Source: Cyanophora paradoxa CCMP329 (lineage: Eukaryota > Plantae > Glaucophyta). Taken from it: 64,000 bases of DNA. Under the pieces are notes generated by a model, which saw only the letters and a program-made list of their open reading frames with translations, did no database searches and was not told where the DNA came from. Of this stretch, positions 1 through 42,462 are shown piece after piece. Position numbers and translations under genes: made by a program. The stretch covers positions 248,001 to 312,000 of the forward strand of contig QPMI01000038.1 in NCBI GenBank assembly GCA_004431415.1. Direction: 5' to 3'. Within the stretch, counting starts at the first letter, position 1. Every line of letters begins with the position of its first letter.

Positions 1-213
1 GGAATGAGGTTCGGAGGCCGGCGCTCGGGAGGTCATTCGGGGGCCCAGTTCGCAGCACCGGGAAACGCGACCGCAGGAAAACGCGCGCGCGGCATTTCGC
101 GCTCGCATTTTCCGGCTTCCCGCATGATCGCGCGTCACGGTGACGCGTCACCGTCGGTGACGGCGACGCGTCCGCCGGCCTTCGACCCGTGACGGATCGG
201 ATTCATCCCCATA

Positions 214-254
214 GCACGCTCGACGGTCGGCGCGCGTGGGGTCGGCGACGGGCC
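214..254. repeat. Second dispersed motif of the island (gcRcgctcgacgKtcggcgcgcgtSgggtcggcgacgggcc)
   Basis: 41 nt with 3 mismatches to 3012-3052. Variant at 3133-3182 and partial copy at about 738-762. Confidence 0.8.
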
Positions 255-286
255 GCGCGCGTTTTTTTCGAGCGCAATGAGTGACC

Positions 287-649
287 ATGGGCAACGCCGA
301 GTCACGACCGCCGGGCGCGCAGGCCTCGACGACGCAGCCGCAGCAGCAGGCCGCGGAGGATGACGGCGGCGAGCTCGAGCTCAAGCTGACACTCTACGCG
401 CTGGTGCTGCTGCTGGCCACGACGGCGCCGTACGGCCTGTACAAGGCCTTCCGCGGCCTCCACGGCCGCTTCGGCTGGAAGGGCAGCGCGCCGCTCGGCG
501 TGGTGATGCTGCTCCTCACGTTCATGGTCGGGCGCGTCGGCCCGGCAAAGCTCACGATGACGTCAGGGCTCGCGCTCACGTTCACTGGCGTCTCCATGGA
601 CAACGACCTGGCACTCGTGCTTCAGACCCTATGCAACTGCCGCAAGTAA
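287..649 (+). CDS. Small intronless membrane protein with predicted N-myristoylation (cassette gene 1)
   Basis: ATG at 287 gives MGNAES (Gly2, Ser6 myristoylation consensus). Hydrophobic segments LYALVLLLATTAPY and PLGVVMLLLTFMV. Stop at 647-649 lies just before the repeat A junction. Confidence 0.6.
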   Translation: MGNAESRPPGAQASTTQPQQQAAEDDGGELELKLTLYALVLLLATTAPYGLYKAFRGLHGRFGWKGSAPLGVVMLLLTFMVGRVGPAKLTMTSGLALTFTGVSMDNDLALVLQTLCNCRK

Positions 650-665
650 ATCACCGGACAGGGAC

Positions 666-723
666 TCGAACCCTTGATTCAACTCCGCAGGGTTTACCGT
701 CACCGTCACGGTGACGGCGCCTA
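666..723. repeat. 58-bp double-hairpin repeat, copy A
   Basis: tcgaacccttgattcaactccgcagggtttaccgtcaccgtcacggtgacggcgccta, with stems aaccct/agggtt and ccgtcaccg/cggtgacgg. Differs from copies B and C by 1-2 nt. Confidence 0.95.
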
Positions 724-776
724 GAGTCGGTTTATACAGCACGCTCGGCGCTCGGCACGTCGTATAATCGCATTCA

Positions 777-1394
777 TCACGGGTGGGGGAAGCCGGGCGG
801 CGGCGGCGACAGGGCCGCGAGGCGCGCGACGGTGTCGCGCGCGATCCGATACGCCGGCACGAGGACGTCGTACACGTAACCGCGGCCCGTGCCGTCGTGC
901 AGGTCGTAGTGGCCCGTGCGGCCGAAGAGCGACGGCTGGCCGACGTGCGGGCAGTGGTGCTTGAGCTCGTTGACGAGCGTGGCGAACGGCTTGCCGGCGA
1001 ACGCCAGCTCGCCGAGCCGCGCGCGGGCCTCCGCGACGAATCGGAAATCGCTCTGCGCGAACGGGTAGCTTGCGAAGTATATGTTGCCGTCGCGGCGGTA
1101 CGGGCCGCGCGGCTGCGCGCGCTCGCAGTAGTGCGCGACGCTGTCCAGCAGCGCCGCCAGGCTCACGGTGGCGGTGAACGCCAGCCCGTTCAGCTCGTCC
1201 GCCGCCGGCGCCCCGGCCCCGGCGCACAGCTCCTGGGCCTGGCAGACGAGCGCGCCGACCACGCACACCGCGGCCCGCACAGTGCCCAGGTGGCCGGCGG
1301 CGTTGAGGCCGCTGGCGGCCGGTTCCCGCGCGCCGCGCATCACCTGCCAGAAGCGCGAACCGTCAGACAGCAGCGGGAACGCGTCGTCCGCCAT
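777..1394 (-). CDS. HEPN-like (Cthe_2314-like) putative RNase, paralog 1
   Basis: Intronless; first ATG at 1394 (MADDAF). Motifs ALLDSVAHYC, NIYFASY and LVNELKHH (NxxKH, a HEPN-type variant). Aligns with ORF 2261-2914. Confidence 0.55.
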   Translation of the reverse strand: MADDAFPLLSDGSRFWQVMRGAREPAASGLNAAGHLGTVRAAVCVVGALVCQAQELCAGAGAPAADELNGLAFTATVSLAALLDSVAHYCERAQPRGPYRRDGNIYFASYPFAQSDFRFVAEARARLGELAFAGKPFATLVNELKHHCPHVGQPSLFGRTGHYDLHDGTGRGYVYDVLVPAYRIARDTVARLAALSPPPPGFPHP

Positions 1395-1480
1395 GGGCTC
1401 ACCGTCGACGTGCGAAAGAAGCGCCGGGCCAGCGAACACGGCGCCAATCGGGCCCGCGGGGGCTCGAACTAGGGTCTTTG

Positions 1481-2164
1481 ATGGAAAGCGCCGAGGCGGC
1501 GGCGGCTGCAGCGGCGCTCGGCGCGCTGCCGGCCGGGCTCCGACCAGTCACAGCCCTGCGCGGCGATGCGGCCAACATCGCGGACGTTCTTTCGGAGCTT
1601 CGGTTGATCCGGGTCAACGTGCCCGACAAGTCGCCGGAGCTCTCTGAGATCGACTCAGCGCTCGCGCCGCTCGCGCTCCTATTCAGAAGCATGCAGGCCG
1701 CCGGGCTCGTGGACGCGCACCCGGCGCTCGTGACGCCGAAGCAGTTCGACGTCCTGCTCACGGACATCCGTGACCGCAGCGACCTGGAGTCAATCGCTCA
1801 GCTGTTCGGCGTCGCTTACCTCGCAGAAGCCCCGCCGGACCGCCGCCCCGCGTTCCCCGTCGAGGGCCAGATCGCCGGCCCCAACAGCCGGCCGCTCGCA
1901 GTCCTGCCGGTCGCCGCGAGGCGCGGGCGCGCCGTGTTCGCCCCATTCATCATCGACACGGGCTCGCCGCACACCTACGTCTCGGGCGACGTCATCGAGG
2001 CGCTCGGCCTCTCGTCTGTCTCGGCGCTCGGCGCCACGCTCCTGGTCAACGGCCGACCGGCCACGGTGTACGAGTCGCACTCGCACTTCAGCAAGGCCTG
2101 CGTGCTCGGAGCCTCGTACTTCGTCGCAAACCGCCTGGCCTCACCGTCCGATACGCATCGCTGA
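1481..2164 (+). CDS. Retropepsin-like (clan AA) aspartyl protease
   Basis: Intronless ORF. FIIDTGSPHTYVS catalytic DTG motif, followed by SHSHF..CVLG (hydrophobic-hydrophobic-Gly motif). Confidence 0.75.
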   Translation: MESAEAAAAAAALGALPAGLRPVTALRGDAANIADVLSELRLIRVNVPDKSPELSEIDSALAPLALLFRSMQAAGLVDAHPALVTPKQFDVLLTDIRDRSDLESIAQLFGVAYLAEAPPDRRPAFPVEGQIAGPNSRPLAVLPVAARRGRAVFAPFIIDTGSPHTYVSGDVIEALGLSSVSALGATLLVNGRPATVYESHSHFSKACVLGASYFVANRLASPSDTHR

Positions 2165-2260
2165 GCCTCTCGATAGCCGAGGAGTCTGGTTTGACTGGTT
2201 AGGTAGTACTGTCGTATATATATTCGCATTCATCACGGGCCACGGCAGCGCGGACAATCG

Positions 2261-2914
2261 TCAGACCGCGGGCCACTCGCGGAGGCGCACGCCGCACTGG
2301 ACGGCGAGCGCGGCCACGCACTGGCAGAGCAGGCGATAGGCGGGCGCGACTGTGCCGGCGACCAGGCGGCGGCCGGCGGCGTCGCGGACGTCGAGCGCGC
2401 CGTCCGCGTCCGCGGACGCGACGCCGAACCACGGGAGCGTGTGCTTGGCGCGGTTGGCGACGGCGGCAAAGTCGCCGCCGTTGTAGAAGTCGGGCCGCCG
2501 GAGCGCCAGGCGCGCGCGCTCGACCGGCTCGAGCCACTGGTGCGCGAACCGGTAGCTGTCGAAGTAGAGCTTGTCTTCCCGCCGCTCGCCGCTCGGGAAG
2601 TGCCGGTCGCAGAAGCTCACGACGCCGTCCAGCGCCGATTGGACGCCGGCAACCGCCGCGACGAGCAGCGGGTTGTACACAAACGGGTCGCCGGCGCCCG
2701 CGCGCATCTCGTGCAGCGCGTCGTTCACGCAGTGCGCCACGTGCACGGCGGCGTTCGCCAGCACCACCACGTGGCCCTCGCGGTTCAAATCCTCGCCGAG
2801 CGCGCCGCCGGCCGCCGCCCGTCCGTTGAACTGCTCGCGCTGCCAATCATGCATCAGAGCGCCGCGACCGTACTGGCGGGCGCGAAAGGACCGCACCAGC
2901 GCCCGACGCGCCAT
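2261..2914 (-). CDS. HEPN-like (Cthe_2314-like) putative RNase, paralog 2
   Basis: Intronless 217 aa. Motifs LNREGH, SALDGVVSFC, KLYFDSY, VANRAKH and PAYRL are colinear with paralog 1. Confidence 0.55.
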   Translation of the reverse strand: MARRALVRSFRARQYGRGALMHDWQREQFNGRAAAGGALGEDLNREGHVVVLANAAVHVAHCVNDALHEMRAGAGDPFVYNPLLVAAVAGVQSALDGVVSFCDRHFPSGERREDKLYFDSYRFAHQWLEPVERARLALRRPDFYNGGDFAAVANRAKHTLPWFGVASADADGALDVRDAAGRRLVAGTVAPAYRLLCQCVAALAVQCGVRLREWPAV

Positions 2915-2938
2915 CGGCCAAACGGGACCCGCCGAGAT

Positions 2939-2996
2939 TCGAACCCTTGATTCAACTCCGCAGGGTTTACCGTCACCGTCAGAGTGACGGCGCCTA
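2939..2996. repeat. 58-bp double-hairpin repeat, copy B
   Basis: Same core as copy A with 2 substitutions in hairpin 2. Lies about 25 bp upstream of the HEPN-2 ATG. Confidence 0.95.
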
Positions 2997-3061
2997 TGCT
3001 CGCCTCTGGTGGCGCGCTCGACGTTCGGCGCGCGTCGGGTCGGCGACGGGCCCGCGGGGAG

Positions 3062-3119
3062 TCGAACCCTTGATTCAACTCCGCAGGGTTTACCGTCACC
3101 GTCATGGTGACGGCGCCTA
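3062..3119. repeat. 58-bp double-hairpin repeat, copy C
   Basis: Same core as copy A with 1 substitution. Similarity to A continues for about 20 bp (gagtcgg.ttatacagcacg). Confidence 0.95.
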
Positions 3120-3541
3120 GAGTCGGCTTATACAGCACGGCCGACGGTCGGCGCGCATCGGGTCGCGTCGGGTTGGCGACGGCTGAATCGGAACATTGTC
3201 CTTTCATGTAACATCAATGGCGAATCAGGCGCGAGCGCTGACGTCACCGTGACGTCATCCCGGACTCGCCGGTTCGCCGCCGGTCCGACCACCGCCCGCG
3301 TCACGGGTGCCACGGGAGTCACGGGAGTCACGCGTGGCGGTGGCGGGTCGGCGTACCCGTGGCGGGCCACGCCTGGCTCGACCCCCCCGCACGCCGGTCC
3401 CGGGGGGGTACCGCCGACCCACGAAATCCCCAGGGTTCCGAGTTGACAACGCTGCAGCCGCTGCTGTGCGCTGCAGCCGCCGCTTACAGCTTGCCAACGG
3501 GGTTTTCGGGATAGCGCGAGGTGGCGGATAACCGCACGGAA

Positions 3542-5626
3542 ATGCTCTCGCCCGGGGCGGCTGCAGAAGCTTTCGATGTGCTGCCCGACGTCGTCATAGC
3601 CGAAGTGTTCAAGCTCTTCGGGCTGCGGGCGGGCTGGCCCCTGCGCGGCGTATGCAGGTCGGCGCGACTGCGCCCGCCGTAGCTAATTAAGCATTACCGC
3701 CGTAGCTAAGCATTTCGCCGCAGGCGGTGGCGGCGGCTGGTCGAGGAGACGGAGTGGGCGAGCTTCGAACTAACCGGCGCGGCGGCGAGCGTCGAGCAGA
3801 GCCGCGAGAGCGCGTACGAGGCAGCAGCGGCGCTCTTTGAGAAGCGGAAGCTGCGGCTCGGCGGAGGCGGCAGCGTCACGCTCAGGCCGTGGGTAGCGAG
3901 CTGGAGCTTGATTCCGGATACTGGGTCAGCTGCAGTGGAAGCAGTGTGCAGCGTTCTCTCCGCCATCACGCACACCCACAGCGGCCCTGCGCAGCCGCGG
4001 GAGGTGATAGTCGAGCTGCAAGAGCTGTTCGATGTCAGTCGCTTTGACGAGGACTTCCTTCACGCCTTCCTGCTCGGCGTGCTGCGGGCGCTGCGGCCGG
4101 CGGAGGGGGCGGCCAGCGGGCTGGAGAGCCTCAGCGTCGGCCTCACTATGGAGGATGAGGGCGGGCAAGGGGACCACTGCCGAAGGGGATCGCTGCCGTG
4201 GCCGGAGTCCGCCGACCTGCGGGCCGCCCTCGCCCCCTTCGGCGGCGCGCTGCGCTCCCTCCACCTCTTCTTCGGGCCCCGAAACGCGGGCTTAGACGCC
4301 GCGTCCGCGGCGGCCATCGCTGCCGCCTGCCCCCTCCTCCGATCCGTCCTGCTTCCTTTTGACGAGGAGTCGCTCTCCGAATCGCTGGCGGCCCTCGCCC
4401 GCCTCGGGTGCCTCGAGGAGCTGGCCGCTGTCCTCACGCCTCTTTCTGAGGGCGGCGTGTCCGAGGGGCTGGCGGCGCTGGCGGACGGCGCCGCCGGGCG
4501 AAGCATCAGGAGGATCTCTTTCCTCGCCGAGGCGGAGATGTGCAGGTGCGCTTAAGCTTCCGATCCGCAGTCCGAGTCCCTTCGTGGCGCTCCTCGCTGA
4601 CGGATTTGTTCGACGCAGGAGGGGCGAGTTCCCGCGCCGGCCAGAGGCGGACTCGAGCTCCGGCGAGTGCCTGGGTCTCGTGCTCTACGACGCCGGCCTC
4701 CTCGCGCTCAGCCGCATGCCCCAACTCGAATCGATCGAGCCTCTGCGGGTGCTACCGCCTGCTCCGCTTGCTGCGTTGACCCCTCCGTCGGCTGCGTTGA
4801 CCCCCCGCGCGCCGCAGATCTATCCCGGCTATGTGCAGCCCGACGCCGTCCGGTCCCTCGGCCGCATCGCGGGCCTCCGCGAGGCCTCCCTGGAGTTCGT
4901 CTGCAGCTCGTCCCGTCAGGAGACGTCGGCTGCGCTGCGCGCGCTGGCGGAGGCGGTGGACGGCCTCCCGCGCCTGTCGCGGCTGCGGCTGCAGCTGCAG
5001 ACGAGCATACGCGAGGGCGCCGGCGCCGTGGCCGAGTTCCTCGGGAGCGCCGGCGCGCGGCGCGCCCTCACGGACCTCGAGCTCGAGGTGCACCCCACCT
5101 GGACCTCGGAGGAGGTGCGCGCCGTGGGGGAGGCGATGTCTGGCCTGCCCCGCCTCGCGAGGCTCAAGCTGGACCTGCGCGGTGCGTGTGGGCCGTGCGC
5201 TCCTCCGGCAGTGCATTCGCCCGCTCACCTCAATGTGCAGGCTTGGACCCGACCGCTGCGGACGTAGTGGCCCTCCTCGGGGGCGGGTGCCTGTCGATCA
5301 CGGCGCTCGAGCTTCTCCTGCACCGGCCCCTCTCCGAGGCGGAGGCCGAGGCGATTCTCGCCCTGCCGGCCCTCCGCCGCCTCCGCATCTCCTCCAAGCT
5401 CTTCCCCCTCCCTTCCCTCCGCCCCTTCGAGGTGTGCGGCTGTACCCCGAGGCCCCCGCGCCGGCCTCTCATCTCTTGCCCCGGCCCGGCGCGGCAGGTC
5501 CTGCGCGGCCTCCGGCCCGAGGTCGCTGTAAAGGTCGACCCTCACCTCCGGCGGCTGGGCCGGGAGCAGGTGCGAGCCTTGACCGAAGCTGTGAACAGCA
5601 TCTTCGCGGGGCGCCCTCCTATTTGA
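3542..5626 (+). CDS. F-box/LRR-like protein (spliced), family copy 1
   Basis: MLSPGAAAEAFDVLPDVVIAEVFKLFG...VCR|RWRRLVEETEW F-box split by a GT-AG intron. LxxLxL repeats (CPLLRSV, LPRLSRLRL, LPALRRLRI). Confidence 0.8.
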
Positions 5627-5785
5627 TCATGACAGCCCGGCGGTTTGAGCTCGTTCGAGTTCTGATCTTAGACTTTTGAAAGACCTGAGACTCTGTAACG
5701 GCCCCGCGAAAGTTTCCATGCTAGTTTCCTGCACAGCGGTGGAGAGGGTCTGGAGAAACATGCACATGATCGACAGCGGGTGCTA

Positions 5786-6140
5786 CCGTGTAATACTTAA
5801 TTACCGCGCTGACATAACTACTCTAAAGATCTACGGTGGGCGTGCCCACTCGTAGTACACAACGAGGATACAAGTCACGGTATCGGGAATCACAGGGATT
5901 CGAAGTACAACGTAGCGGAAACAGCAGGAACCGACATAACTACTGCGCTACCATATTACTGCGCTCTATATTTTTACAACGCAGTAATTTGGTAGCGCAG
6001 TAAAGCGCGCGCGCCTACCGCAGAGTACCGCGCCAGTACCCAGGACCGGCGCAGAAAGTTTAGAACGCAGTAATTTGGTGGCGCAGTAAAGCGCCTACCG
6101 TAGTTCCGGCGCAGAAATTTACCGTAGTACCGGCGCAGTA
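5786..6140. mobile_element. Truncated Tc1/pogo-like MITE fragment with internal repeats
   Basis: TA + CCGTGTAATACTTAATTA resembles the TIR at 36866. Internal repeats aacgcagtaatttggt.gcgcagtaaagcgc. No right TIR seen. Confidence 0.4.
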
Positions 6141-6584
6141 GCGGAGAGGGGGGCACGTCGGAGTCTCTTGGGCGGCTCCGGTTCGGCTCGCAGAAGCTAG
6201 CTACAAGCGGCGCCGGAGTGCTCGGCAATAGCAGCCGCGACGGCCGCGCGCGCGGGCGCGGGGTGTCCGGTTCAGCACGCTGGAGCCCAGCTCCGCACCC
6301 TCCGCCGGGCCGCGCCGCGAAGGGTACGGCGCCCGCCACGGGTCGGGGCGGCGTCGCGGCCACGTGCACGGGGCTGGCAAAGGGCCGAGCTCGAGCAGGC
6401 GCCGCGCCACGTCGAAGCGCCCGGCCCGCAGCGCCACTGCGCCCGCCGCTGCATCAGGCGCGCCCGGGCGCAGGGCGGGCGGGCGGGCTGCGGGGGAACA
6501 AGGACGAGCCTCTGAGGGCGGAGCGGCCCTTCGGCGTCGGGACCGTCGGACGTCGACTTGGCGCGGCCAGCGGAGCGCACTGCG

Positions 6585-6860
6585 GCAGCGTTCCTCCCCC
6601 AAAAATGGGCGGAGCGACTCCGAATCGCGCTGCGCGGGCGTCGGACCCGCGCAGACCGCGTCGCCGGCTTTCCAACGACCCCCATATCGCGTGGCCCCAC
6701 GAGGGGGGTACAGGCAACTTCGCACCTGACCCACGGCGTGACGGACATCGTTGGAACGGGCGCGACAAGGATATTCCGGCGGCGAAGTCCCCTTTGAGAG
6801 GCTGGCCCGAGGTGGAGGGGTACACCCAAAAAACTGCCCGGGGGCCTGTCAGAGCCCTGC
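6585..6860 (-). repeat. ~280-bp dispersed repeat (also about 18088-18325 and 26629-26890), possibly a hAT-type terminal fragment
   Basis: Three similar copies, each beginning CAGGG(C/G)TCTGAC, which resembles a hAT TIR start. No partner TIR found. Confidence 0.45.
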
Positions 6861-7809
6861 AGCATCGCAAGAGAGGGGGCCGGACCGTGCATAAGGAGTG
6901 ATATGCGCGCTGCGAAATCGGTGGTGAGCGCCGCATGGAGCAGTGAAGGGGCAGACCACCGGGCATCGAACGAAGACGAGATCGCCTTCGACAACGTCGA
7001 CTTCGATGGGTCGAAGTGGAACCTGCGTAGACGGATGCACAGCGCTAGCCGCGAGGACGCCGTCTGAAGCTCGCGCGGCCGCCGCGGAGCCCGAGCCCAA
7101 GCGTTCGAAGACGAAGCTGCCAAAACCGCCGCGCGCGCGCGAGCCACTACCAACACTCGCGCCGCCGCAAGTCCGAAACTCGCTGCGCAGTCTGCGGCAC
7201 GGCGCCGAGGTCCGAACAACCGCGGCGTCGACGTGAGATCAGACGACGCGAGGCCAGCGCGATCGAAAGCGATCGAAAGCGATCGAAAGCGCGGCTGAGA
7301 GAACTCTGAGTCCCGCTGCCTCCCGCTGCAGTTTCCGCTGCTAGCGCTGATTCCCGCTGATTCCCGCTGCTGAATCCCGCAGTCGCCGGGGGTACGACAC
7401 ACAAACCGAACTCGAAACGCCGCCCCCCGACAGGCGAGCGTCCGCGCGGCGCGTATGAGAGCGGGTATCGCCTACGAGGCGTATGCGGCGAGAGTCATTC
7501 AAGTCGAAGAGCACGCTGAAAATGGGGAGCGCGCTTGACAGGTGTGTCTCGCACGCGGGCCCGGGCCCATCCGAGCCAGCGCGCTGCACGGATATCGATT
7601 TTGGGATTACCTGACCTCCCCGCCCGCGCAGAAGCTTCTCCGCTTGCGTTTGCGCCTGCAGCTGCGTAGCTGCCGCCGCGGCTGCAGCGTGGTCATGGTC
7701 GTGGCCAGCTACAGCGTTCGCGGCATCTGCATGTGCATGCGCAGTTATAGCTACAGCTGCAGCTGCCCGTAAGGCGCTCGAGGGACCAGCTTCAGACCAA
7801 GACACGTTC

Positions 7810-9856
7810 ATGATATCGATCAATGCGCTGCCGGATGCAGTCATCGCCGACGTCTTCAAGCAGCTCGGGCTGCGGGCGAGCTGTCCCCTGCGCCGCGTGT
7901 GCAGGTCAGCGCGATATCCACGATTTCGCCCCGCGCGGCCGGCGCCGCAGCCACGACCCGGGCCATGATCTCCCGGCCGCGGCCCGCCATATGCATGGCC
8001 ACAGCTAAGTATAAGCATTTGGTGACATGTGCAGGCGGTGGCGTCGTGTGATCGAGGAGACGGAGTGGGCGAGCTTCGACCTGCGTGTACGTACAAAGCG
8101 CATCAAGCACGTCTCCGACGGCGTGTCAGCGCTGTTCAAGAAGAGGAAGCTCCGGCTCAGCGCCGGCGCGAGCGTCGCCTTGAGGCCGGAGCTCGAGGTC
8201 GGCGCGTCTCGCGACCTCGAGCTCTGGGACATCATCGGAGCCGTCGGCGATGTCCTCGCGGCCATCAGCGTCACCCACCGCGGTCATAATCAGGCGCAGC
8301 CTCGGGAAGTCGTTGTCGAATTTCTCGAAGGAGACGCCGACCTTTTCGACGAATACGCATGCGCCGTCGACGAGCTGTTCATGCAACTGTACGTGCTCGG
8401 CGTGTTGGCGGCCTACTCGTATCGGCTGCGCGACGTCGGCGGGACAGTCAGTGGCCTCCACAGCCTCAGCATCGGCCTCACCAGCAGGAGGGAGGCGCTG
8501 CCCGGCTCCGACCGCCAGATGCACTTCCCGTCGTCCGCCGACGGGGAGCTGGGTGCCGCCCTCGCGCCCTTCCGCGAGCTGCGCTCCCTCGACCTCTTCT
8601 TTCACAACTCCGCCGGCATCTCCCCGGAGACCGCCGCCGTCATCGCCGCCGCCTGCCCCCTCCTCCGCTCCGTCACCATCTGCCCCCTCATTATCGCCGC
8701 CAACGAGGTGCTCGGGGCCCTCGCGCCCCTGGCGCACCTCGAGGAGCTGGCCGTCGTGTGGCCGTCGAACTGCGGCCTGCACGACTTCAACCACGGCGTG
8801 GCCGCCCTCGCCTGCGGCGCCGCGGGCGCGAGCCTTCGCAAGATCGCGTTCGTCGCCGAGGCCGGCCTTCACAAGTGCGTTTCGCAATTCGAATTCATTT
8901 TGCGGATTTCGCGATATTGAAAACCGACAAAGAAACCGCGGCGTGCATGCAGGGACGGCGAATTCCCGAAACGATCTGCGGAGGCCCCTCCGGCGCACGC
9001 TGCGGTCTTCGCCTGCGGCCTCCGCGCCCTCAGCCTCATGCCGAATCTCGAATCCCTCGGGCCGCTGATGGTGCGCGGTCTTACTAGAATTCGCTCTGTA
9101 CATGTTGCGATCGCCCCTGCAGCTGAATCGAGCTCACTAATTCTATTCCGTGCGCACGCCTCGCAGTTCAAGGCGCGCGAGCTGGACCCCGAGGAAATCC
9201 TGGCCCTCGGCTGCGTCGCGAGCCTGCGGGAGGCGCACGTCTGCCTCTACAGCGCGCCCCAGGACCTCGAAGACGACCGCAGCGACCCGGACTTCGCCTC
9301 GGGGGCCCTGCGCGCCCTCGCGGGGGCGCTCACCCGCCTGCCCCGCCTCGAGCGCCTCCGCCTCGACCTCGTCGCCACCGGTGCGCTCTTCGACGCCGTG
9401 AGCTCATTGCGGCATAGAATGACGTCGGTGTCGACGCATGCGCAGGCAGCGGCCACGGGCCGGCGAGCTGCGCCGCGCGCCCCGCGGACGTCGTCGCCGT
9501 CTTCGCCAGCGCCGGGGCGCGCCGGGCCCTCACGGAGCTGCGCCTGGTCGTCTGCCGGCCCCTCTCCGAGGCGGAGGCCGAGGCGATCGTCGCGCTGCCC
9601 GCCCTCCGCCGCCTCAGCATCGCCGCCGCGTACAGGGCCCAGTCCGCCCCGCCCCTCCGCCCCTTCGAGGTGCCTGCACGGCCCTAGGCCCGTGCACGAG
9701 CGGCTCCCGCGGCCCGACCTCACCGTGCGGCAGGTTCTGCGCGGTCTTCGGGCCGGGGTGGTGGCGGAGGTGAGGGTGCAGAGCCCCTGGGGCGCCCCCT
9801 CCCCCGCCTTCGAGGGGGCGAGGGCCGCCATCCAGCGCCTCGTCCGGGGGCGCTAG
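7810..9856 (+). CDS. F-box/LRR-like protein (spliced), family copy 2
   Basis: MISINALPDAVIADVFKQLGLRASCPLRRVCR|RWRRVIEETEW, followed by LRR-like exons. Confidence 0.8.
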
Positions 9857-10249
9857 GCTGCCGGCCCCGCGCCAGGCGCCGCCGGGGCTAGACTGCGGGC
9901 TCCCGCGCCATAGCCAGGGGCCCTCATGATCAGTGCTAGCGCTGGCCTCCGATATCGATCCTCCTCCGCATCGCATGATCATATGCATGCCGTGATGATC
10001 ACGGCGCCGGCGCCCCCCGTCCCTGTCCGATCCCCCGCAACCATATGTGCATCACGTGCATAATAGATAAGCTCGTGTCTCCCGACAAGCTCGTGCCTCC
10101 CGACAGCTCTCCCGATAAGCTAGACATGTGCGAAGATCTAGGGGGCGGGGGGGGGGGGGGGGGGGGTGGGTGGTGAGGGGAGGGGGCAGAGAGGGGGGGG
10201 GAGGTGAGCTGGAACAGAACTAGACGATCCGCGGGGCCCTGCAGCTGCC

Positions 10250-11613
10250 GCGGGCCGCAGCGGTCGCGGGCCTGGCATCAGCCGCAGGCCCTGGCAGAAG
10301 AAGGGTGCAGCCACGGGCCGGCAAGGGCCCACCGCAAGCAGGCGCCGCGCCACGTCGAAGCGCGGGCCGCGGCGAAGGCCGCCACGTCCGACCGTTGCGA
10401 GGGGTTGCCCTGCGGGGTCGTGGGCGCCGGGCGGGCCGGGGGCGGCAGGGCGGGGCGGACCATGGCGAGGAGCGCGAGGCGCGCGCGGGCGTCGAGGAAG
10501 GCGGCCCGACACGCTTCGCAGCCCGACACGTCGAGCCCGTCCAGCGCCGGCAGCTTGCCGCCCGCTCGGGCTCGTGGGGCGCCCGCGAGCGGGGCGAGGG
10601 CCGCCGGGGCGCATGCGCCTCCTCGGGTCCAGGACGCTTGTGATGAGGGGGCGCCCGCTGCAGAGCAGGGCGCCCATGCCGCTCTCCGTCTCGAGGTACC
10701 TGCGGGGACGGCCGGCGGCCGCGTGGGCGGAGGCGGCGGGCGGGCGGCGCGGGGCGCGCACGCGAGGTAGAGGCGGCGCAGGGTCCCCTTGCACGACTCG
10801 AGGATGGCGGGGAGCACGCGTACGCGGCCGCTCGCCATCCGGCAGCCCGACAGGTCGAGCACCTCCAGCCTGGGCAGGCGGAGCGTGTACCCGTCCGAGA
10901 TATCCAGGGGTACGGTCTGCCGCGTTGGCGCGGAACTCCACGAAGGCCAGCGACAGGTGCGTCAGCCTCGGCTCCGCCGCCGCCTCCGCCTCGGCGAGCG
11001 CCCGGAGGACCTGCAGCGGCGCGGCCGCGTGAGCGTCGCGAGAGACGCGGGCGCCCGGGGCGCGCGGGGAGGCGAACGCCCGGGCGGCACCTTGTGCACG
11101 TGCTGCGGGCGCGTCTGCCTCAGCTGGCCGAGGTTGACGCGCGTGACCCTCGCGACCGAGCGCGCCGGGGCGAGCCGCAGGTGCCGGTGGAGCCTGTACG
11201 CCGCCGCGATGACCTTGCACTCGTGCGCCAGGGACCGCGGCTCCGGCCACGTGCACGCGCACTTGCGCTCGCACTGCGACGGGATCGCTCGAATGAGCAG
11301 AGCGCGCGTGGATGCAGCTGACGCGAGCGCGCACCTGGTAGTTGTCGTCGAGAGAAGCCGGGGTGTAGAACATCGCGAAGAACTTCGAGCATGCGATGCC
11401 CATGCGATGCGATGCATGTGGGGGCTTCTGGCGCGCACGTATTCGAAGGTCTTCTCCAGGATCTCATCTGTGCGCCGCCCGCAGCCGCGGGAGGTCAGCC
11501 TGCAGCTGTGCGCCGGCGCCGCGTTCCCGAGCGGCGCGGACGCGCGAACCGGGCAGAGCGAGGAGGCCAGTGGGCTCCGTGGTGGAGGCTATACCTACGT
11601 CGGATGTGGCCAT
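10250..11613 (-). pseudogene. F-box/LRR gene with an apparent 2-nt frameshift
   Basis: MATSDV...GLLALP|DEILEKTFEY F-box and LRRs (RLPRLEVLDLSGC, LPALDGLDVSGC). At about 10920 it reads aacgcggcag versus aactcgtggcag in the paralog at 27438. Confidence 0.6.
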
Positions 11614-12017
11614 GGCCGCGCTCCGGCTACAGCTGGATTGTTTGCGTGCTGTGCTTGACTGGCTTCGCTGCGAATTGGCTGGCTTTGCTTTGAATTGGCT
11701 GGCTGGAGCATTACGTGTCGCCCCGCGGCGGTCGCACGACTCGCCACTGAACGACCAGCAGAATTTGCCCTTGCGCGAACGTCCGCAGCAGTGTTCAAAC
11801 CGAGTGCCCGCGCCATGCGCCTTTCGAAAATTCGGCCTCGCGCCTTCGCGTCGCTGTACCCGCCACGCATCTCTACCCCACCATATTTGCCGCTCCCTTC
11901 TCAACCGGGCGACTCCGACGGGCGCGAGAGGCGCCGACGTTGCAGCACAGCTCGAACCAGCGTGCTTGTCGCTCCCGGACCAGACACTTTTGAGTGAGCT
12001 TCCTTCAGCCGCGCGCG

Positions 12018-14008
12018 ATGGAGCGACGTTCGGCGTTCGTTCTTCTTCCGGCCGCTGGGCCGCTCTCAGCTTCCGGAGAGCTCCGCACGCCGCCGCCGTT
12101 GACAGGTGCGGACGGCGCTTGCGTGTCGTACGCTTCTCCGGTCCGTCGCCGGTCGTCGGTCGGCCTAAGTCGGCGGTTGTTCTACCGTCAGGCTGCCAAG
12201 CGTCGTCGTCGCGCCAGGAGCGCCGGGCGGCGGCCGCGCGTACCACTTTCTTCAAGAGGCAGCTGTCCGCACACACGCACCTTGCGGCACCGAGCGCTCT
12301 CCGCTGGTCGCCTTCGGCATGTCCCCCGCAGGCGAGTTAGTCGCGGCTTCCGGAAGCTGCGCACCGTGGCCCTGACGCGTTTATCGCGCAGCCGTTTCCC
12401 GCCGGCGCGGTTGCGAGCTCGCAGTTCGAGGGCGCGAAGCGGAGCGGCGGTGCGGAGGACTCCGCACGACCGTCGCTTCTCGGGATCACGCACCCCGACA
12501 ACATGTCGCCGCCCCCGACGTGCGCGGCCCCGCCCCCGCCCCGCCGGCCGCCGGCGGCGCGCGTCTCTGCTGACCCGGCTCCGCGCGCACTGCGGCAGGC
12601 TCGAGAGGTGAGTCCCCGTCTTCCCACCGCGGCGCCGCCCCGCGAGCGTCGCGCTGACGCCGCCGCCCCCGCGGGAGCGCAGCCACCCCGACAACCACGA
12701 CCTGCCGGCGCCGCCGGTGGAGGCAGTCGCGAGCTTCGCCGCCCTCTACGGCGTCGTCGAGCGCCTCCTCGGGCCCGGTCCGCCGTACCCCTCCCCGGCC
12801 ACCTCCCCGCCGGCCCCAGCGTTTGTACCCCCAAAGGCTCCCGCTCCCCCTTCCCGGCCCCTAGCCGCCGTGCCGCATCCGCGCTGCCGCGCCCCCGGCC
12901 CTCCCTGCCCGCGCCCGTGCGCTGCCGGACGCCCTATCGGCCCCCGTAGCCCGTACCCCCTCTTGGGTTCTCCCTCCCCCTGCAGCTGCGCCTGACGGGC
13001 CGGCCGCGCGCGCGGGGCAGACGGGTGCCCGTGGGACCGATCCCAGACGGTGTCGAGCCTGCGGCCGTTCATCCTCGAGGAGGCCTACGAGCTCATCGAG
13101 GTGCCCGCCCCGCCCCCGTACCCCCCCCCCCCCCCTTGGCCACCTCCCCCCTAATCTCCCCCCAGGCGGTGGACCTGGGGCAGGCGGATAAAGTTTGCGA
13201 GGAGATCGGCGACCTCATCTTCAACCTGTGCGTACCCCCTGCACCCGCGGGGCGCATGTACCCCCCCCCCTGACTCTCCGCAGGCTCCTGATGGCCTCGC
13301 TTTCGCCTTTCCAAATCTCGGACTCGCTGGTGCGTGCCGCCAGGCCCAAGACCAGACCCAAGGCCCCCTGGGCGCGGGCCGAGCGGGCCGGGGGCGCAGT
13401 GGATCGCGTCGGAGAAGCTGATCCGGCGGCACCCGCACGTCTTCGGGGAGGAGGAGGACAGCAGCCACCAGGTCCGCGCGCCACGAAGTGCACGGGCCGC
13501 CTAGGACGCTGAGCCGAGCGGCGGGCAGGCGATCCGGGAGAACTGGGAGCGGATCAAGGCGGAGGAGGCGGGGCACGGGGACCGCACGTCGGCCATCGAC
13601 GGCATCCCCAAGGACCTCCCCGCCCTCGCCCGCGCCCAAAAAGCCGCCTCCAGGCCCGCCCCGCCCCCGCCCCCGTCCACGTTCTTAGGAAGGGCCTGAC
13701 CGTGGCGGGCAGGCTGGAGCGGGCGGGCTTCGAGGCGGGGCTGCTGGTGCCCGAGGGGGAGCCGGCGGACGCGGAGGAGCGCCTGGGGAGGGAGCTCCTC
13801 GAGCTCTGCCTCCGCGCCCGCGCCGAGAAGCTCTCCGCCGGTCAGCAAAGCGTGCCCGAGAAGCTCTCCGCCATCCGCCGTCCGCCGCTCACTTCGGGGC
13901 GGGCCAGAGCAAGCGCTGCTGAAGGTGCTGGCGAAGCAGGAGGCCGCCTTCCGCGCCCTCGAGCTCGAGGGGCGCCTCCCCCGCGGCAGGCCCGACGGCC
14001 CCGGCTAG
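12018..14008 (+). CDS. mazG: MazG-family nucleoside triphosphate pyrophosphohydrolase (spliced), possible plastid transit peptide
   Basis: Exons give [11 protein letters not shown]|[27 protein letters not shown]|[41 protein letters not shown] and [15 protein letters not shown]. Stop TAG at 14006-8. The 5' start (MERRSAFV) is less certain. Confidence 0.9.
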
Positions 14009-14149
14009 CCGCTGGCCGTGGGCGCTCTAGCCCCGCCCGGCGACTTCGCCGGGCCCCCGCACTCCACGTCCATCCCTTCTGTTGTACTCTACAGCGAGCG
14101 CGAGCGAGCGATGTTGTCCGCAGTAGTAGTGTTTCCCTCAAGGCCTAAC

Positions 14150-14625
14150 ATTACGTACATACATGGGCATGCGTATGCACGGTAGGCCAGGGGGCGCCAG
14201 AGCTCTGCGGCGGGCCATCACAAAGGGGGCCGCCCCGCGAAGATGCTGTGTACAGCTGCGGCCACGGCTTCCGCCGCTTTGGGGGGCAGCGGCCGGCCGT
14301 CAGGGAGCTCCGGCCGCGGGGAGACCTTCACGGCGACCTCGGGCCGAAGGCCGCGCAGGACCTGCCGCGCACGGCGCCGGGGCGGGGCGTCGGGCGGGCG
14401 GAGCTCGACTCGAGACCAGGGAAGGCGCAGGGCCCCGGGCCCTCACGGGCTCGACTGCGCACCTCGAAGGGGCGGAGGGAGTAGTCAAAGGGCAGAGGCG
14501 AGGAGATGCGGAGGCGGCGGAGGGCGGGCAGCGCGAGGATCGCCCTGGCCTCGGCCTCCTCGAGCGGCCGGTGCATAAGCAGCTCCAGCTCCGCGATCGG
14601 CAGGGCCCCGCCGCCGAGCCGCCCT
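14150..14625 (-). pseudogene. 3' fragment of an F-box/LRR family gene
   Basis: LELLMHRPLEEAEARAILALPALRRLRISS and VLRGLRPEVAVKV match the C-terminus of copy 1. No 5' exons. Confidence 0.65.
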
Positions 14626-15120
14626 GCCACCCTGACCCGTCGCCCCCCGCTAGGCCTTGGGCCTGCTGCGGATGCCATGGCCAGCTGTCAGGCCCGCGAT
14701 CGCTGCGGCCCGCGCGAGGGCCCCCTGTTCGAATTCCGTGCCCCAGGCCGGCGCCTTCCACCGCCGCGGCCCCCCGCCCCCCGCCCCCCCCCCCTTCGCT
14801 CCTCTCCCATTAATATTCCCGCCCCGCCCAACCCCACACACCCCCTCCCCGATAATATGCGCAAGCTGTCAGGAGCACGAGTTATATAATTATCATCAGC
14901 TTGCAATTGATCATGCATATGATTCAGTGCTTATCTATATATATATATAGCTAAGGTTGGGTGATGGGTCGGAGACGTTGACGGAGGCGGACGGAGGGCG
15001 CTGGCCATGGCGCCGCGATCACTACGGCATGACCATGGGATGCGGAGGGGGACCGGAGGCTGAGAAGGGTGCAGACGGACCCCCGACGACATACATATGG
15101 CGCGGGGGCCGGCAGCCTAG

Positions 15121-17137
15121 CTAGCGCCCCGGGAAGCGGAGGTGGATGGCGGCCCTCGCCCCCTCGAAGGCGGGGGAGGGGGCGCCCCAGGGGCTCTGCA
15201 GCCTCACCTCCGCCGCCACCTCGGCACGAAGACGGCGCAGAACCTGCCGCACGCGTACGGTCAGGTCGGGCGACGGTGGCCGCGCGGCCGCGGGCCAAGG
15301 CCTAGGGCCGTGCAGTCACCTCGAAGGGGCGGAGCGGCGGGGCGGACTGGGCCCTGTACGCGACGACGATGCGGAGGCGGCGGAGGGCGGGCAGCGCGAC
15401 GATCGCCTCGGCCTCCGCCTCGGAGAGGGGCCGGCAGACGACCAGGCGCAGCTCCGTGAGGGCCCGGCGCGCCCCGGCGCTGGCGAGGACGGCGACGACG
15501 TCCGCGGGGCGCGCGGCGCAGCTCGCCGGCCCGTGGCCGCTGCCTGCGCCGACATAGACGTCATGATACGCCGCAATGAGCTCACGGCGTCGAAGAGCGC
15601 ACCGGTGGCGACGAGGTCGAGGCGGAGGCGCTCGAGGCGGGGCAGGCGGGAGAGCGCCCCCGCGAGGGCGCGCAGGGCCCCCGAGGCGAAGTCCGGGTCG
15701 CTGCGGTCGTCTTCGAGGTCCTGAAGCGCGCTGTAGAGGCAGACGTGCGCCTCCCGCAGGCTCGCGACGCAGCCGAGGGCCAGGATTTCCTCGGGGTCCA
15801 GCTCGCGCGCCTTGAACTGCGAGGCGTGCGCACGGAATAGAATTAGTGAGCTCGATTCAGCTGCAGGGGCGATCGCAACATGTACAGAGCGAATTCTAGT
15901 ACGATCGCGCACTATCAGAGGCCCAATGGACTCGAGGTTCGGCATGAGACCGAGGGCGCGGAGTCCGCCGGCGAAGACCTCAGCTGGCGCCTCAACCGGC
16001 GGATCCGCGGATCGTTTCGGGAATCCGCCGTCCCTGCATACACGACCGGGTTTTATAGTTAGTTATTAATATCGCAAAATCAATTGCAAAACGCACTTGT
16101 GAAGGCCGGCCTCGGCGACGAACGCGATCTTGCGAAGGCTCGCGCCCGCAGCGCCGCAGGCGAGGGCGGCCACGCCGTGGTTGAAGTCGTGCAGGCCGCA
16201 GTTCGACGGCCACACGACGGCCAGCTCCTCCAGGTGCGCCAGGGGCGCCAGGGCCGCGAGCACCTCGTTGGCGGCGAAGATGAGGGGGCAGATGGTGATG
16301 GAGCGGAGGAGGGGGCAGGCGGCGGCGATGATGGCGGCGGTCTCCGGGGGGATGCCGGCGGAGTTGTGAAAGAAGAGGTCGAGGGAGCGCAGCTCGCGGA
16401 AGGGCGCGAGGGCGGCACCCAGCTCCCCGTCGGCGGACGACGGGAAGTGCATCCGCCGGTCGGAGCCGGGCAGCGCCTCCCTCCTGCTGGAGAGGCCGAT
16501 GCTGAGGCTGTGGAGGCCGCTGACTGTCCCGCCGACGTCGCGCAGCCGATACGAGTAGGCCGCCAGGACGCTGAGCACGTACAGTTGCATGAACAGGTCG
16601 TCGACGGCGCAGGCGTATTCGTCGAAAAGGTCGGCGTCTCCTTCGAGAAATTCGACAACGACTTCCCGAGGCTGCGCCTGATTATGCCCGCGGTGGGTGA
16701 CGCTGATGGCCGCGAGGACATCGCCGACGGCTCCGACGATGTCCCAGAGCTCGAGGTCGCGAGACGCGCCGACCTCGAGCTCCGGCCTCAAGGCGACGCT
16801 CGCGCCGGCGCTGAGCCGGAGCTTCCTCTTCTTGAACAGCGCTGACACGCCGTCGGAGACGTGCTTGATGCGCTTTGTACGTACACGCAGGTCGAAGCTC
16901 GCCCACTCCGTCTCCTCGACCACCCGTCGCCACCGCCTGCGGCCGAATGCTTAGCTACGGCGGATGATCATGGCCGGCGCAAGCGCAGCGGCTGCAGCTG
17001 GCGCGCGGGGCGGGGCGAGGTCGCGCAGACCTGCACACGCGGCGCAGGGGCCAGCTCGCCCGCAGCCCGAGCTGCTTGAAGACGTCGGCGATGACTGCGT
17101 CCGGCAACGCATCGAAGGCTGCGCGCGCCAGCTGCAT
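15121..17137 (-). CDS. F-box/LRR-like protein (spliced), family copy 3 (inverted duplicate of copy 2)
   Basis: MQLARAAFDALPDAVIADVFKQLG. Exon 16066-16923 is almost identical to 8027-8920. Confidence 0.8.
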
Positions 17138-22200: not shown

Positions 22201-25200
22201 CTCTCCTTCGGCCCCCTCGTCCTCTTCCTCCTCGCCGCCGCCGCCGCCGTCCATGCGCAGGTTGCGCCGCAGCTCCGAGGCCTCGCCCTGGTCCGCCCTG
22301 CGCCCGCTTCAGAGCCGTTCCGGGGTACGCACGAGAAGCAGGGGGGGTACTTGGTGCCGACGAAAGCGAGGCCGTCGCAGGCTCCGTCCATGAGGACCTG
22401 AGAGGCGTCAGAATTATAAGCTAATTCGGCGAGAGACGTGTGTGCGGACCTGCCGGCGGAAGGTCGAGCCCAGCACGTCCCACGCCGTCTACGCGCTCGC
22501 CGTCAGCCGAAGGATTACATTCCGGGGGGTACGCGGTCGGACCTTCTCGTCCGAGGCGCGGTGCAAGGCGGAGACGACGAGGAGCAGGCTGCACTTCTTC
22601 ATGAAGTCCAGCGTCACCTGGGTACGGCATTGGACCGGGGGTACAGCATTTCGGCGTCGCGATCGAAAGCCGTCGGACCTGGACGCGCGCGGCGTTCTGG
22701 TCCTCGACTCCGGGCAAATCCTGGAAGCGCGGGGTGAGTGAAGCCACGGAAAAGAGAGGGGTACAGCGCAGGAAAAGAGAGGGGTACAGCGCAGGAAAAG
22801 AGAGGGTTACAGCGCAGAAAAAGAGAGGGGTACGGCGCACGACAAGGCAGACGCCGGGGGCGAGGCCGCGGAAGGGGCCCGCGAGGTGCACCTCCTCCAC
22901 CAGGGGCCAGAGCTGCGGACCGGAAGGACAATCAGTCCGATTCGCCCTGTGACGAGTGTCGTCGCGGGAACGCGCCTGGGCGCCGCCGCGCTTGAGGCGC
23001 CCGGCGCGGTCGAGGGGCGCCTCGGTGTAGGACTGGACCCACGGCTGCAGCCTCGCGGCGAGCCGGGCCGTCGCCCGCTTCGGCTGGCGGATCTCCCGCT
23101 GCACTTTCCTGCAGGGCGGTGAGCGGAGCTCGAAGCAGAGCTGCGCGGAGCTGCGCGCCTCCAGGAGGGGAGTTTGCAGAGCTCGTCCCACTCGGCGATG
23201 CGCCCGTACACGGCGAGCACCGCCTGCCGCTCCTTCTTCACCTCCTGGCCGGCCCTGGGGTACGAGGTGAGGCGAGGTAGAAGAAGGGGGGGGGGGTACG
23301 GGACCCACCGCCTGACGTCGAGGCGCCCGGCCTCGTCGCGGAGCGCGTCGAGGAGGGCCAGTACCCGCTTCTTCCACTGCGGCCCGCTCCAGTCAGAGGG
23401 GTACGGGGAACGGCGGGAGGGGGTACGGCCGCACCTTCCCTTCGTCGATGAAGCGGACCTCAGCGCTGAAAGGGCACTGCTCGTTTGCCGCAGGCTCCGT
23501 GCGGGTCATGAAGATCTGCAGGAAATCAGCGCATCACTCTAGAAGAAAAGGGGGGCACGACGAACCTTGGACGCGGTGCAGGCATGTACCCCCGAAGTGG
23601 GGAGTACAGCGCCCTCCCCAAGCACCGCGTTCAGGCACGAACTCTTGCCTGCGTATCCTAGTGAGGGGGGTACGTGTAGCGAAAGGGGGTACGCGAACCG
23701 GCGCCGGAGATGCCGACGACGCCGGCGATGACGGGCTTGGCGGCGGCGTCGGCTAGAGCCCGCAGCTGCTCGGCCTGCATCCGGAATGCGTGGACACGGG
23801 CGTCGCCCATCGCCCCGGATCGCAGCGCCGCGTCGACGTGCTGGAGCACCCACGAGGCGCCCCGCGTCGCCTCCGTCCCAACCTCTGCCGCCCGGCGCGT
23901 GAGAGGGGTACGGCGACGGTCGGGCGGGGGCGCGCACCGGGAGGGAACCGCGGCTCGTCCGGCAGGAAGCCGGAAGCGGGCTGGGCGGGGGGCTCGGGCG
24001 CCTGCGCCGGCGCCTCCGGCGCGGGAGCGGCCGGGGGCACCTCCGCCACCGCCGGCCCCGGCGCTGCAGCTGAGACCTCCGCCGCTGGCGCTGCCGCTGC
24101 AGCCGGCGCGGCCGGCGCCGCCGGCGCCATGTCTGACGCCTCCACGTTCGCAGCAGGGTACGGGGGGACCTGCTGCTTCTCGGACTCGCTCGTCTTGGGC
24201 GGCCCCTGCGGGCTGGTCCCTTCTCGGTCCTCCTCGCGCAGGGGTACAAGGACGGGCGGAGACGCCGCCGCACGCCCCGCCGGCCCTCCGGCCGCCGGCG
24301 TGACCGCTTCGGGCGCATCGGCGGCCGGCGCGCGGGGCGGCGAGAAGAGGGGAGGGGGGCTCGGAGGGGGGAGGGAGAGGACGATGGGCGCTTGGGGAGC
24401 CTGGGAGAGAGAGGGTCCGGCGGCCGAAGCGGGAGGGGGAGGAGCGGGAAGGGCGAGGACGAGGGGTACGGACGCCTGGGAGGCCTCCTCGGGGCCGGGG
24501 AGGGCCAGGGTCTGGCTCTTGCTCTGGCCAGCCCCGCCCTGCGACGCCCTTGCGAGGGCGACGACGCCCTCGAAGGCGTCCTGCAGCTCCTCCCGCACGC
24601 CGAACTCGGGTACGTCGAGCGCCGCCAGGGCGCCCTCTACCCCCCTGCGGACCAGCGCCGTCACCCTGATGCACTGCTCGACGATGCGGCTGCACGTCCG
24701 CTCCCGCGCCGCTTCCTCGTCCGGTAGCGCCTCTGGGGGTGCGTAAGGAGAGATTGAGGGGGAGGGGGGTACAATGCGGTCGCACCGGCGAGCTTGACGT
24801 GGGTGTACCCGGCAAGTTCGACGGGCTTCCAATCAAGCGGAGCTTTCAGAGCCGCGCTCGCCGCAGCCGCCGCCCAGTCGTGTCTGCGCTCGATCCGTCA
24901 GGCGGGGCTTGCTGGGGACAGGCGCTGGCGCCCGCAACTAACACCTCGGGCGCTTGGGCTCGGGCTCCGCAGCCTGGCTCGAGGGCGCGGGCGCGGGCCG
25001 CTTGGAGGTCATTGGTGGCGGCGGTGCCATGGAAACAGGCCGGGCCGCGCTCTGCGCGAAGACGGGGGCGCGTAGAGGTCAGGGCCCGCAGAATTGATCC
25101 GCCGCAGCCCGGCCCGCGCGCGCACGATCGGCTGCGTCATCGACAGCGGCGGCGCCTCCGCCATCGGCTGCGTCACCGCAACGCCGGCTTGTGACGCGCC

Positions 25201-28252: not shown

Positions 28253-28740
28253 TTTTTTTTTTTGGTGAATTACCGGCCACAGTCTCTAGACACCAGCACT
28301 GCGGGGGCTGCCCAGGGGGCATAAAGACAAAAAAGCAAAATAACTAAGACAAGAGCACGAAGAAAGATAAGACAAAGAGCCAAAATCGACAATAAAAAAG
28401 AAAAGACACAGAGCTCGAGACAGAGCGAGAAGAGACGAGAAATCGAGCAGATCTAGGGACAGAGGATGACTGACACGAAGAAGAGCCAGAGCTAGAGATA
28501 CCATCAAGATCGGAAGGAATTACATCACTAAGAAGCGGAGGACGAAATTGAGAAAGATAAATAACAGGAAGCAGACAAGTAAGAGGAACAACAAGACGAC
28601 GCGGAGGCGGAGGCGAAGCAGGACGACGCGAAAGGGCAGAGCTACGGCACGAGGTCGAGGAGGACACAGGAGGCGGAGCAGGCGGATCAAGAGCAGGCAA
28701 AAGGACAGTCAAAGGAATCACTAAAGCCGGCCGGGGTCGA
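28253..28740 (-). mobile_element. Short 5'-truncated copy of the L1/Tx1-like non-LTR retrotransposon
   Basis: Reverse complement of about 41570-42062. Poly(T) at 28253-28263. TSD aggcgccgaaatcta at 28238-28252 and 28740-28754. Confidence 0.9.
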
Positions 28741-28813
28741 GGCGCCGAAATCTAGATCCTTCTGACGCTTTAGCTATGTATACGTATATAGTTATAGATC
28801 ATCGGTCTAGATC

Positions 28814-36664: not shown

Positions 36665-36865
36665 GATCGTCGTGCTGAGGCTGGAGAAGAAAGAGAGCTG
36701 GGAAAAGCTGTATTTGTTCTTACGAGGCGCGCGGTCGCGCGCGCCGGCGTTCTCCGCTGCAGCTCAGCGCGCTACAGCCGCTGAGCTAGCGCGCGGCACA
36801 GCGCGGCGACTTGCGGGGATATCGATTAGGCTGCAGCGCTACTAGGCTTGCTCGCTCAGCGGCTA

Positions 36866-37105
36866 CCGTGTAACACTAAATTAACAGCCCGATAATTAAC
36901 AGGCTATAAAATCTGGCCCGCCCTCAGGCGAAATAACAGAAAATTTAGACTTGTATGGGGCGATAATGCTGGGGGGTAGATTGTATGAGATGACTGAGCA
37001 GCAGCGAATTAGCAGAGTCACAAATTAACAGACTATGTCAAAATTTCGGTCTGTTAATTTGGGACTCTGCTAATTAAGTGAGTCCAGTACTTATGTGTTA
37101 CACGG
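36866..37105. mobile_element. Tc1/mariner-pogo type MITE (240 bp)
   Basis: TIR CCGTGTAACAC/GTGTTACACGG, flanked by TA at 36864-65 and 37106-07. AT-rich, non-coding. Confidence 0.85.
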
Positions 37106-42436: not shown

Positions 42437-42462
42437 TTTTTGGTGAATTACCGGCCACAGTC
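42437..42462 (-). repeat. Tiny 3'-terminal fragment of the same retrotransposon
   Basis: tttttggtgaattaccggccacagtc is identical to the element terminus at about 28259-28284. Confidence 0.6.

Follow-up and report, generated by a model that had tools for sequence, protein, structure and literature searches.

A possible array of tRNA-derived recombination modules in a multi-copy mobile element of Cyanophora paradoxa

Attachment sites made of tRNA fragments and arrays of gene cassettes are hallmarks of prokaryotes. In integrons, IntI acts on attC sites whose core reads GTTRRRY. In prokaryotic genomic islands, attP includes a 3′ fragment of the targeted tRNA, and tandem stacking of islands occurs (PMC4383910, PMC8371274; here and below, cited papers are represented by portions of their text). 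Eukaryotic elements with tyrosine recombinases have short cores and inverted repeats (PMC13236599, PMC11162782), and Polinton-like viruses (PLVs) as well as giant-virus insertions are reported from Cyanophora paradoxa (PMC8502044, PMC12220804, PMC12344493). In the portion of PMC12220804 at hand, cryptophyte PLV insertions have no tRNA genes within 1 kb, and no internal array of attachment (att) sites is described. Here we analyze 64,000 nt of C. paradoxa contig QPMI01000038.1 (assembly GCA_004431415.1; positions 248,001–312,000, forward strand), called the window below, in which a repeated core sequence ends abruptly against short tails that resemble tRNA 3′ ends. We tentatively favor the view that modules of tail, cargo, and core were inserted at GTTCGA by a site-specific recombinase that used a tRNA-derived attachment arm.

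The core repeat and its tRNA-like tails

Junctions are read on the minus strand, so that upstream means towards higher coordinates. The repeats and the sequences joined to them are as follows.

666..725, minus strand: core copy A, with a palindromic GTCAC-N-GTGAC block, tandem TGACG, and the arm GAGTTGA; ends in TTCGA
2939..2998, minus strand: core copy B, inside a spliced contig that continues into gene H1
3062..3121, minus strand: core copy C
651..665, minus strand: tail A, tRNA-like over positions 59–63 only, adjoining the stop codon of a plus-strand gene; read as the flank of the target
2924..2938, minus strand: tail B, of the C/D family up to position 72, with the H1 start codon 9 nt behind it
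3047..3061, minus strand: tail C, the best inverted partner of the core arm and the best match to real tRNA 3′ ends
1449..1469, minus strand: site D, GTTCGA plus a tail, without a core; a variant of site D occurs in reads

The three 60-nt cores are identical at 56–59 of 60 positions and end sharply at TTCGA. The 30 nt upstream of this motif agree at 30/30 positions in A, B, and C, and the 15 nt downstream agree at 5/15 (A–B), 6/15 (A–C), and 10/15 (B–C). An earlier note on this DNA, made from the sequence alone, had placed four sites on the minus strand at the coordinates listed and had let the core stop at TTCGA; both points hold. The last 21 nt of the core occur three times in 64 kb and not once in 100 shuffles. 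The junction observation is real and well beyond chance. In reads, a variant of C (3061 G>C) shares five more bases with A; measured against this variant, the edge of A lies 5 nt past TTCGA, and the true edge may therefore follow position 63. Two promoter-like words are peculiar to this region within the 64 kb: GTCAC-N-GTGAC is found only at 134–144, 705–715, and 3243–3253, and tandem TGACG is confined to the cores. The core pattern had no matches in viral contigs and none in metagenome contigs, and blastn against phages returned short chance matches only. Rfam found nothing above noise, and no tRNA, in positions 1–6000 or in the A site taken by itself, the sole match being 13 nt of T-arm to tmRNA at 4.7 bits.

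Tails B, C, and D are alike at 9–13 of 15 positions, and A agrees with them at 5–6 of 15. The caveat of the earlier note, that B, C, and D resemble one another, was thus borne out. The block common to C and D starts at G53 and ends at tRNA position 73 (19/21), and B follows it to 72, so that a tRNA 3′ fragment reaching the end of the gene is present in C and D (53–73), nearly so in B, and not in A. Site D matches C at 13/15 positions downstream and the core at 8/30 upstream, departing from the core just before G53 and from C just after position 73. Of 1830 control pairs, 7 attained a comparable likeness (12 or more of 14), some of them duplicated genes.

To score the tails, we used 130 prokaryotic tRNA 3′ ends, of which 5 had no usable T loop; the profile was made from the other 125, all distinct, and was rerun with 122 after removal of three more that matched the B/C/D search pattern. 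The four tails rank 1, 4, 6, and 8 among the 264 TTCRA sites in the window (p 0.003–0.013 each), and they score within the lowest third of real tRNAs. Over positions 66–73, p was 0.03 for C and D, 0.19 for B, and 0.35 for A. In 3 of the 64 parts of a prokaryote collection, a degenerate B/C/D pattern matched 128 times, at 125 loci; 109 of these matches lie at the 3′ end of a tRNA called by ARAGORN (76 for Arg, 18 for Lys, and 15 for others), and in most of the remaining 19 a tRNA 3′ half can be recognized by eye. Of 101 archaeal genomes searched at no more than two mismatches, 43 had a match to C, 5 to B, and 1 to A (not at a T loop), compared to none for a B-box-like control site and none for all reversed controls; the pattern and the archaeal phylum had been chosen from the data, and the B-box-like control was a single one. 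In one genome, two of three matches stop where an RF00005 match has its 3′ end. In viral contigs, two of three matches are tRNA ends, and the pattern for tail A had no match. B, C, and D are thus probably one tRNA-derived family, judged against prokaryotic, archaeal, and viral sets. The conclusion does not extend to A, which is tRNA-like only to position 63 and fails the acceptor-strand test. Relaxed ARAGORN matches in the window are noise, and the idea that core plus tail form a single whole tRNA was rejected, since the folds are hairpins and not a cloverleaf.

Inverted arms, modules, and cargo genes

Ahead of AAG, the core arm repeats the T-loop arm in inverted form, so that core and tail make an imperfect inverted repeat. 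Core plus C can form an unbroken run of 11 pairs (9 Watson-Crick, 2 G-T) around AAG, and the core arm pairs at 9/10 positions with A and 8/10 with B. Shuffled tails fold as well as the real one in 1.4% of cases for C, 12% for B, 27% for D, and 100% for A; C alone among 65 GTTCRA sites has all four pairs at 59–62. The hairpins have z-scores of −2.1 to −4.3. The arm GAGTTGA also stands at 3440–3446, 3 nt from the inferred end of the element described below (chance ~0.3%, noticed post hoc), and the 60.5 kb beyond the element has eight copies. The att-like junctions with an arm resembling a tRNA 3′ end that the earlier note proposed are thus strengthened, by the 53–73 span of C and D, by the resemblance of C and B to real Arg and Lys ends, and by the inverted repeat.

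Between and around the junctions lie four genes and the following further features.

287..649, plus strand: predicted small membrane protein of 120 aa; no Pfam family; C-terminal part in two versions among copies
777..1340, minus strand: gene H2, HEPN-like fold; GT-AG intron 1344–1402 upstream of the working start
1481..2164, plus strand: retropepsin-like aspartyl protease gene, DTG motif; Pfam below cut-off
2261..2914, minus strand: gene H1, a paralog of H2 (28% identity); GT-AG intron 2840–2896
763..783, minus strand: 3′ motif, H2 copy; 20/21 identical with 2219–2239
2219..2239, minus strand: 3′ motif, H1 copy
2939..3061, minus strand: empty module of 123 bp, tail C plus spacer U plus core B, no gene
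671..1468, minus strand: putative loaded module, tail D plus H2 plus 3′ motif plus part of U plus core A
214..259, minus strand: copy of spacer U, 42/46 to 3012–3056, with the final 6 nt of a C-type tail in front of it
724–759, 3012–3056, and 3134–3172, minus strand: further copies of spacer U, which lies upstream of the core

The H2 module has GTTCGAG at both ends, and with 671–1468 removed, 33 nt would separate the stop of the 120-aa gene from the protease start, both on the plus strand. Apparent decayed sites near 180–275 and at 3180–3195 align only loosely and were not counted.

H1 and H2 share the 21-nt 3′ motif despite 28% protein identity. Both GT-AG introns are skipped in contigs of run X15, whose RNA nature is a tool's guess, and the skips are absent in three DNA runs; one spliced contig spans position 3000, core B, and H1. 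The transcripts are probably nuclear and spliced. The H family numbers 85 representatives, mostly unnamed metagenome proteins, and has one member in a giant-virus-like metagenome contig, L004 (3525–4193), which within 1–14190 also encodes a PIF1 helicase, a KilA-N protein, and a GH46 chitosanase; no H-family relatives were confirmed in the viral contigs. A structure model (pLDDT 88) had HEPN domains as its top four neighbors among 48,161 chains (Z 9.4–11.2, rmsd 3.1–3.6, 129–138 aligned residues), values of Z below 13 not being decisive for helical bundles. Foldseek gave no match at E 0.001, and the Atlas lead HEPN_Cthe2314 stood at rank 16, with 56% of members. The HEPN catalytic motif is R-x4-6-H; the H family keeps N-x-x-K-H (N142, K145, H146) and lacks the usual arginine. 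H1 and H2 are predicted to have a HEPN-like fold, and any RNase activity is likewise a prediction. In Chlamydomonas incerta, three proteins (P0024, P0106, P0107) fuse a HEPN-like domain to a long C-terminal part, with three copies on a 592-kb contig; by its motifs that part looks TnpB/Fanzor-like, and Pfam gave no such match. PADLOC reported nothing of note.

Three DNA runs carry one more C than the window at 2138, and the protease has 240 aa in other copies vs 227 here, so that the window's protease copy is frameshifted or mis-assembled. Beside junction A, at 579–649, the 120-aa gene has two homologous 3′ versions, and contigs of run X3 fork at 578.

The multi-copy element and the rest of the window

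Proteins encoded in this region fall into clusters with C. paradoxa entries in EukProt. The order H1, protease, H2, 120-aa gene recurs on tig00000073 (g1732–1735), tig00000403 (g278–281), tig00000492 (g1569–1566), and tig00000984 (order read from gene and accession numbers), and H1 with the protease is also on tig00000249. The only variation in gene content among copies is the 3′ end of the 120-aa gene. Positions 1–3000 have 2.6–4.4 times the depth of the contig at 3421–3647 in three DNA runs (H2 in X11 only 1.4 times), although depth in a read set is not by itself a copy number, and 3260–3449 again has about twice the interior depth in X1 and X3.

3232..3449, no strand assigned: inferred terminal repeat; contigs fork at 3232 and 3449, ~2x interior depth, GAGTTGA at 3440–3446

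The forks and the doubled depth fit a terminal inverted repeat, one end of which is in the window. Taken together, depth and protein data place the first base of the window within a multi-copy element that closes, near 3449, with its terminal repeat. The junctions belong to this mobile element as fixed parts; it continues to the left of base 1 and may be a PLV or a cargo transposon.

Among contigs that leave the core at TTCGA (three runs on 560–700, 14 records), only tails A, B, C, and the C variant were seen. The repeat is thus not a dispersed family sampling many tRNAs, and the diverse tRNA flanks that the earlier note had proposed to look for among repeat copies did not appear in these three read sets. 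A tRNA-derived short interspersed element was rejected, given the same short list of joined tails and no tRNA 5′ part.

Elsewhere in the window, 483-nt inverted repeats (98% identical) with poly-T/poly-A outer ends at 28253–42060 surround 12.8 kb of lower GC (53–61%), and the first ~20 bases of the repeat recur near 42437; a C/T-rich stretch at 38.2–41.6 kb has long frames, with no Pfam match among the three scanned. An intron-rich gene family, whose start we take to be F-box-like, lies in inverted duplicates at 3560–5630, 7820–9860, and 14200–17120 (e.g., 8031–8889 and 16082–16940 at 97%) and has many more genome copies by reads. An AT-richer patch at 5930–6140 has short gcgcagta repeats that form a hairpin, and a 23-bp tandem repeat of ~5 copies occupies 22725–22862.

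Possible origins and comparison with known systems

In the mechanism that we favor, a site-specific, probably tyrosine, recombinase would cross over at GTTCGA, and the module order would be tail, cargo, spacer U, and core. A module circle would rebuild the best site, core plus tail C, with two GAGTYGA arms around a 7–9-nt center. Insertion at X-GTTCGA-Y would join X to the tail, as at site D, and the core to Y, as at site A; such circular insertion is the simplest account of A, where a core meets a foreign tail, together with D, where a tail lacks a core. The stretch from C to B would then be an empty module, that from D to A the H2 module dropped between two plus-strand genes, and an older module, holding H1, would begin at B. 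The fragment of tRNA may be a gene-restoring piece, as in prokaryotic islands, kept from an ancestor that targeted an Arg-like tRNA gene, and the module array would now travel passively within the larger element.

Several observations weigh against this mechanism. Gene order is identical on all four complete named copies, with no shuffling seen. No empty site or excised circle was found among the contigs listed from 4 and 3 runs (contigs drop rare forms); in three runs, contigs pass junction A without a break, and no 670–1469 joint is listed. None of the four genes encodes a recombinase, and the remainder of the element lies left of the window. ARAGORN called no tRNA gene in the 64 kb, and none is upstream. 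The profile signal sits nearly all in positions 59–63, with p 0.13–0.32 over 64–73, and the tRNA matches are archaeal, from a phylum picked because it matched and with one control pattern, and GC-rich ends could have converged. The 7-bp match at the element end adds only one base to the motif that defines the sites, and the HEPN-like gene of L004 has neither tail nor repeat.

The strongest alternative, which we hold less likely but take seriously, is that the core is a promoter or 5′-UTR module that was spread or homogenized by duplication and gene conversion, with tracts ending at the last conserved block, TTCGA. Tandem TGACG, the palindromes, a TATA-like box in U, and a B-box-like hairpin suit it, as do the confinement of GTCAC-N-GTGAC to three places and of tandem TGACG to the cores, the placement of H1 and H2 in sense behind tails B and D, the spliced contig over core B and H1, the fixed gene order, and the fact that both hairpin mismatches are compatible with G-U pairing on the minus strand. 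It leaves unexplained why C and D share exactly 53–73 and why D is without the core from G53 on, and why core A is followed by an oppositely oriented gene end and core C by no gene. If it were true, the cores would be an ordinary repeated regulatory block.

We consider it improbable that the tails are remnants of a decayed tandem tRNA cluster, viral or host, whose 5′ parts were overwritten and into which genes were inserted later, no dedicated recombinase being involved. The tails do end at 72–73 and resemble Arg and Lys ends, and one C. paradoxa PLV record has a tRNA-Pro (in the available text of PMC12220804). Nothing tRNA-like stands 5′ of G53, however, the T-stem 5′ strand is unpaired with B, C, and D, neither ARAGORN nor Rfam finds a tRNA, and the edge of replacement is the same in three copies and forms an inverted repeat.

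Slightly less credible still is the proposal of the earlier note that every junction arose on its own, each by recombination with another of the host's tRNA genes, and that downstream DNA was captured in this way. The agreement of A with the other tails is like that of unrelated tRNA ends (mean of real pairs 6.8), and beyond position 73, B, C, and D show no significant likeness (p 0.21). Against independent events stand the single B/C/D family, the failure of A over 64–73, and the limit of three tails and one variant in three read sets. Capture fared no better: behind B and D are paralogous, virus-associated genes, not host flanks, and no intact tRNA is upstream. Finally, it is very improbable that the hairpin acts as RNA, a decoy or self-cleavage site in the leader of a HEPN-like mRNA that limits a tRNA-cutting nuclease: the leader position, the spliced contigs, the hairpin z-scores, and HEPN toxins among the top structural neighbors would suit it, but the HEPN arginine is missing, nuclease activity is only predicted, the B–D fold is not a T-arm, and two of the four sites precede no sense gene.

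A broader form of the recombinase mechanism, speculative and on balance unlikely, is that a eukaryotic virus-like element has its own integron-like cassette array, in which a recombinase acting on tRNA-derived sites would load single defense genes (HEPN-like RNases, a protease, a small membrane protein) beside the terminal repeat and could also target host tRNA genes. Searches within an open-access library brought up neither eukaryotic mobile elements reported to have such an array nor PLVs reported to have HEPN genes. If the recombinase mechanism holds, it shows how small algal viruses or transposons acquire defense genes one by one, provides a candidate for a tRNA-targeting recombinase of eukaryotes, and draws attention to a family of HEPN-like proteins, unannotated, with at least 85 members, and shared with giant viruses.

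Compared to the PLVs described in portions of PMC12220804, PMC10120064, and 10.1101/2025.10.09.676808, the element is likewise endogenous and multi-copy, with a terminal repeat of ~220 bp and accessory defense-like genes; unlike in PLVs with a tyrosine recombinase, capsid, ATPase, and recombinase genes are not visible in the window, the body of the element lying outside it. Phaeovirus attP/attB sites (PMC13236599) and Starships (PMC11162782) likewise have short cores and inverted repeats, and some target Pol III genes, but their sites are element ends (CC core; 5S rDNA) vs the internal tRNA-fragment joints between cargo genes here.

Integron arrays share single-gene, recombinase-free modules between imperfect palindromes, defense-like cargo, and mixed orientation of neighbors. 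Joints here read GTTCGA(G/A/C) vs GTTRRRY, no IntI was seen, and order is not rearranged among copies; integron membership fails on the joint sequence and the constant cassette order. The tRNA-targeting islands of Islander (PMC4383910) and of archaeal tyrosine recombinases (PMC8371274), as far as these excerpts go, likewise have a fragment from T loop to discriminator at module ends in the same orientation, several modules in tandem, and inverted arms around a short center. The present locus differs from them in being a eukaryotic nuclear element with spliced genes, with no intact tRNA heading the array and no integrase in the modules, which measure 0.1–0.8 kb vs Islander's 2-kb floor. Islander looks for an intact cognate tRNA upstream on the same strand, and there is none here; because a cognate tRNA is lacking, the array is not a member of the genomic islands. 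In the way it works, it is most like a tRNA-fragment island or a cassette array.

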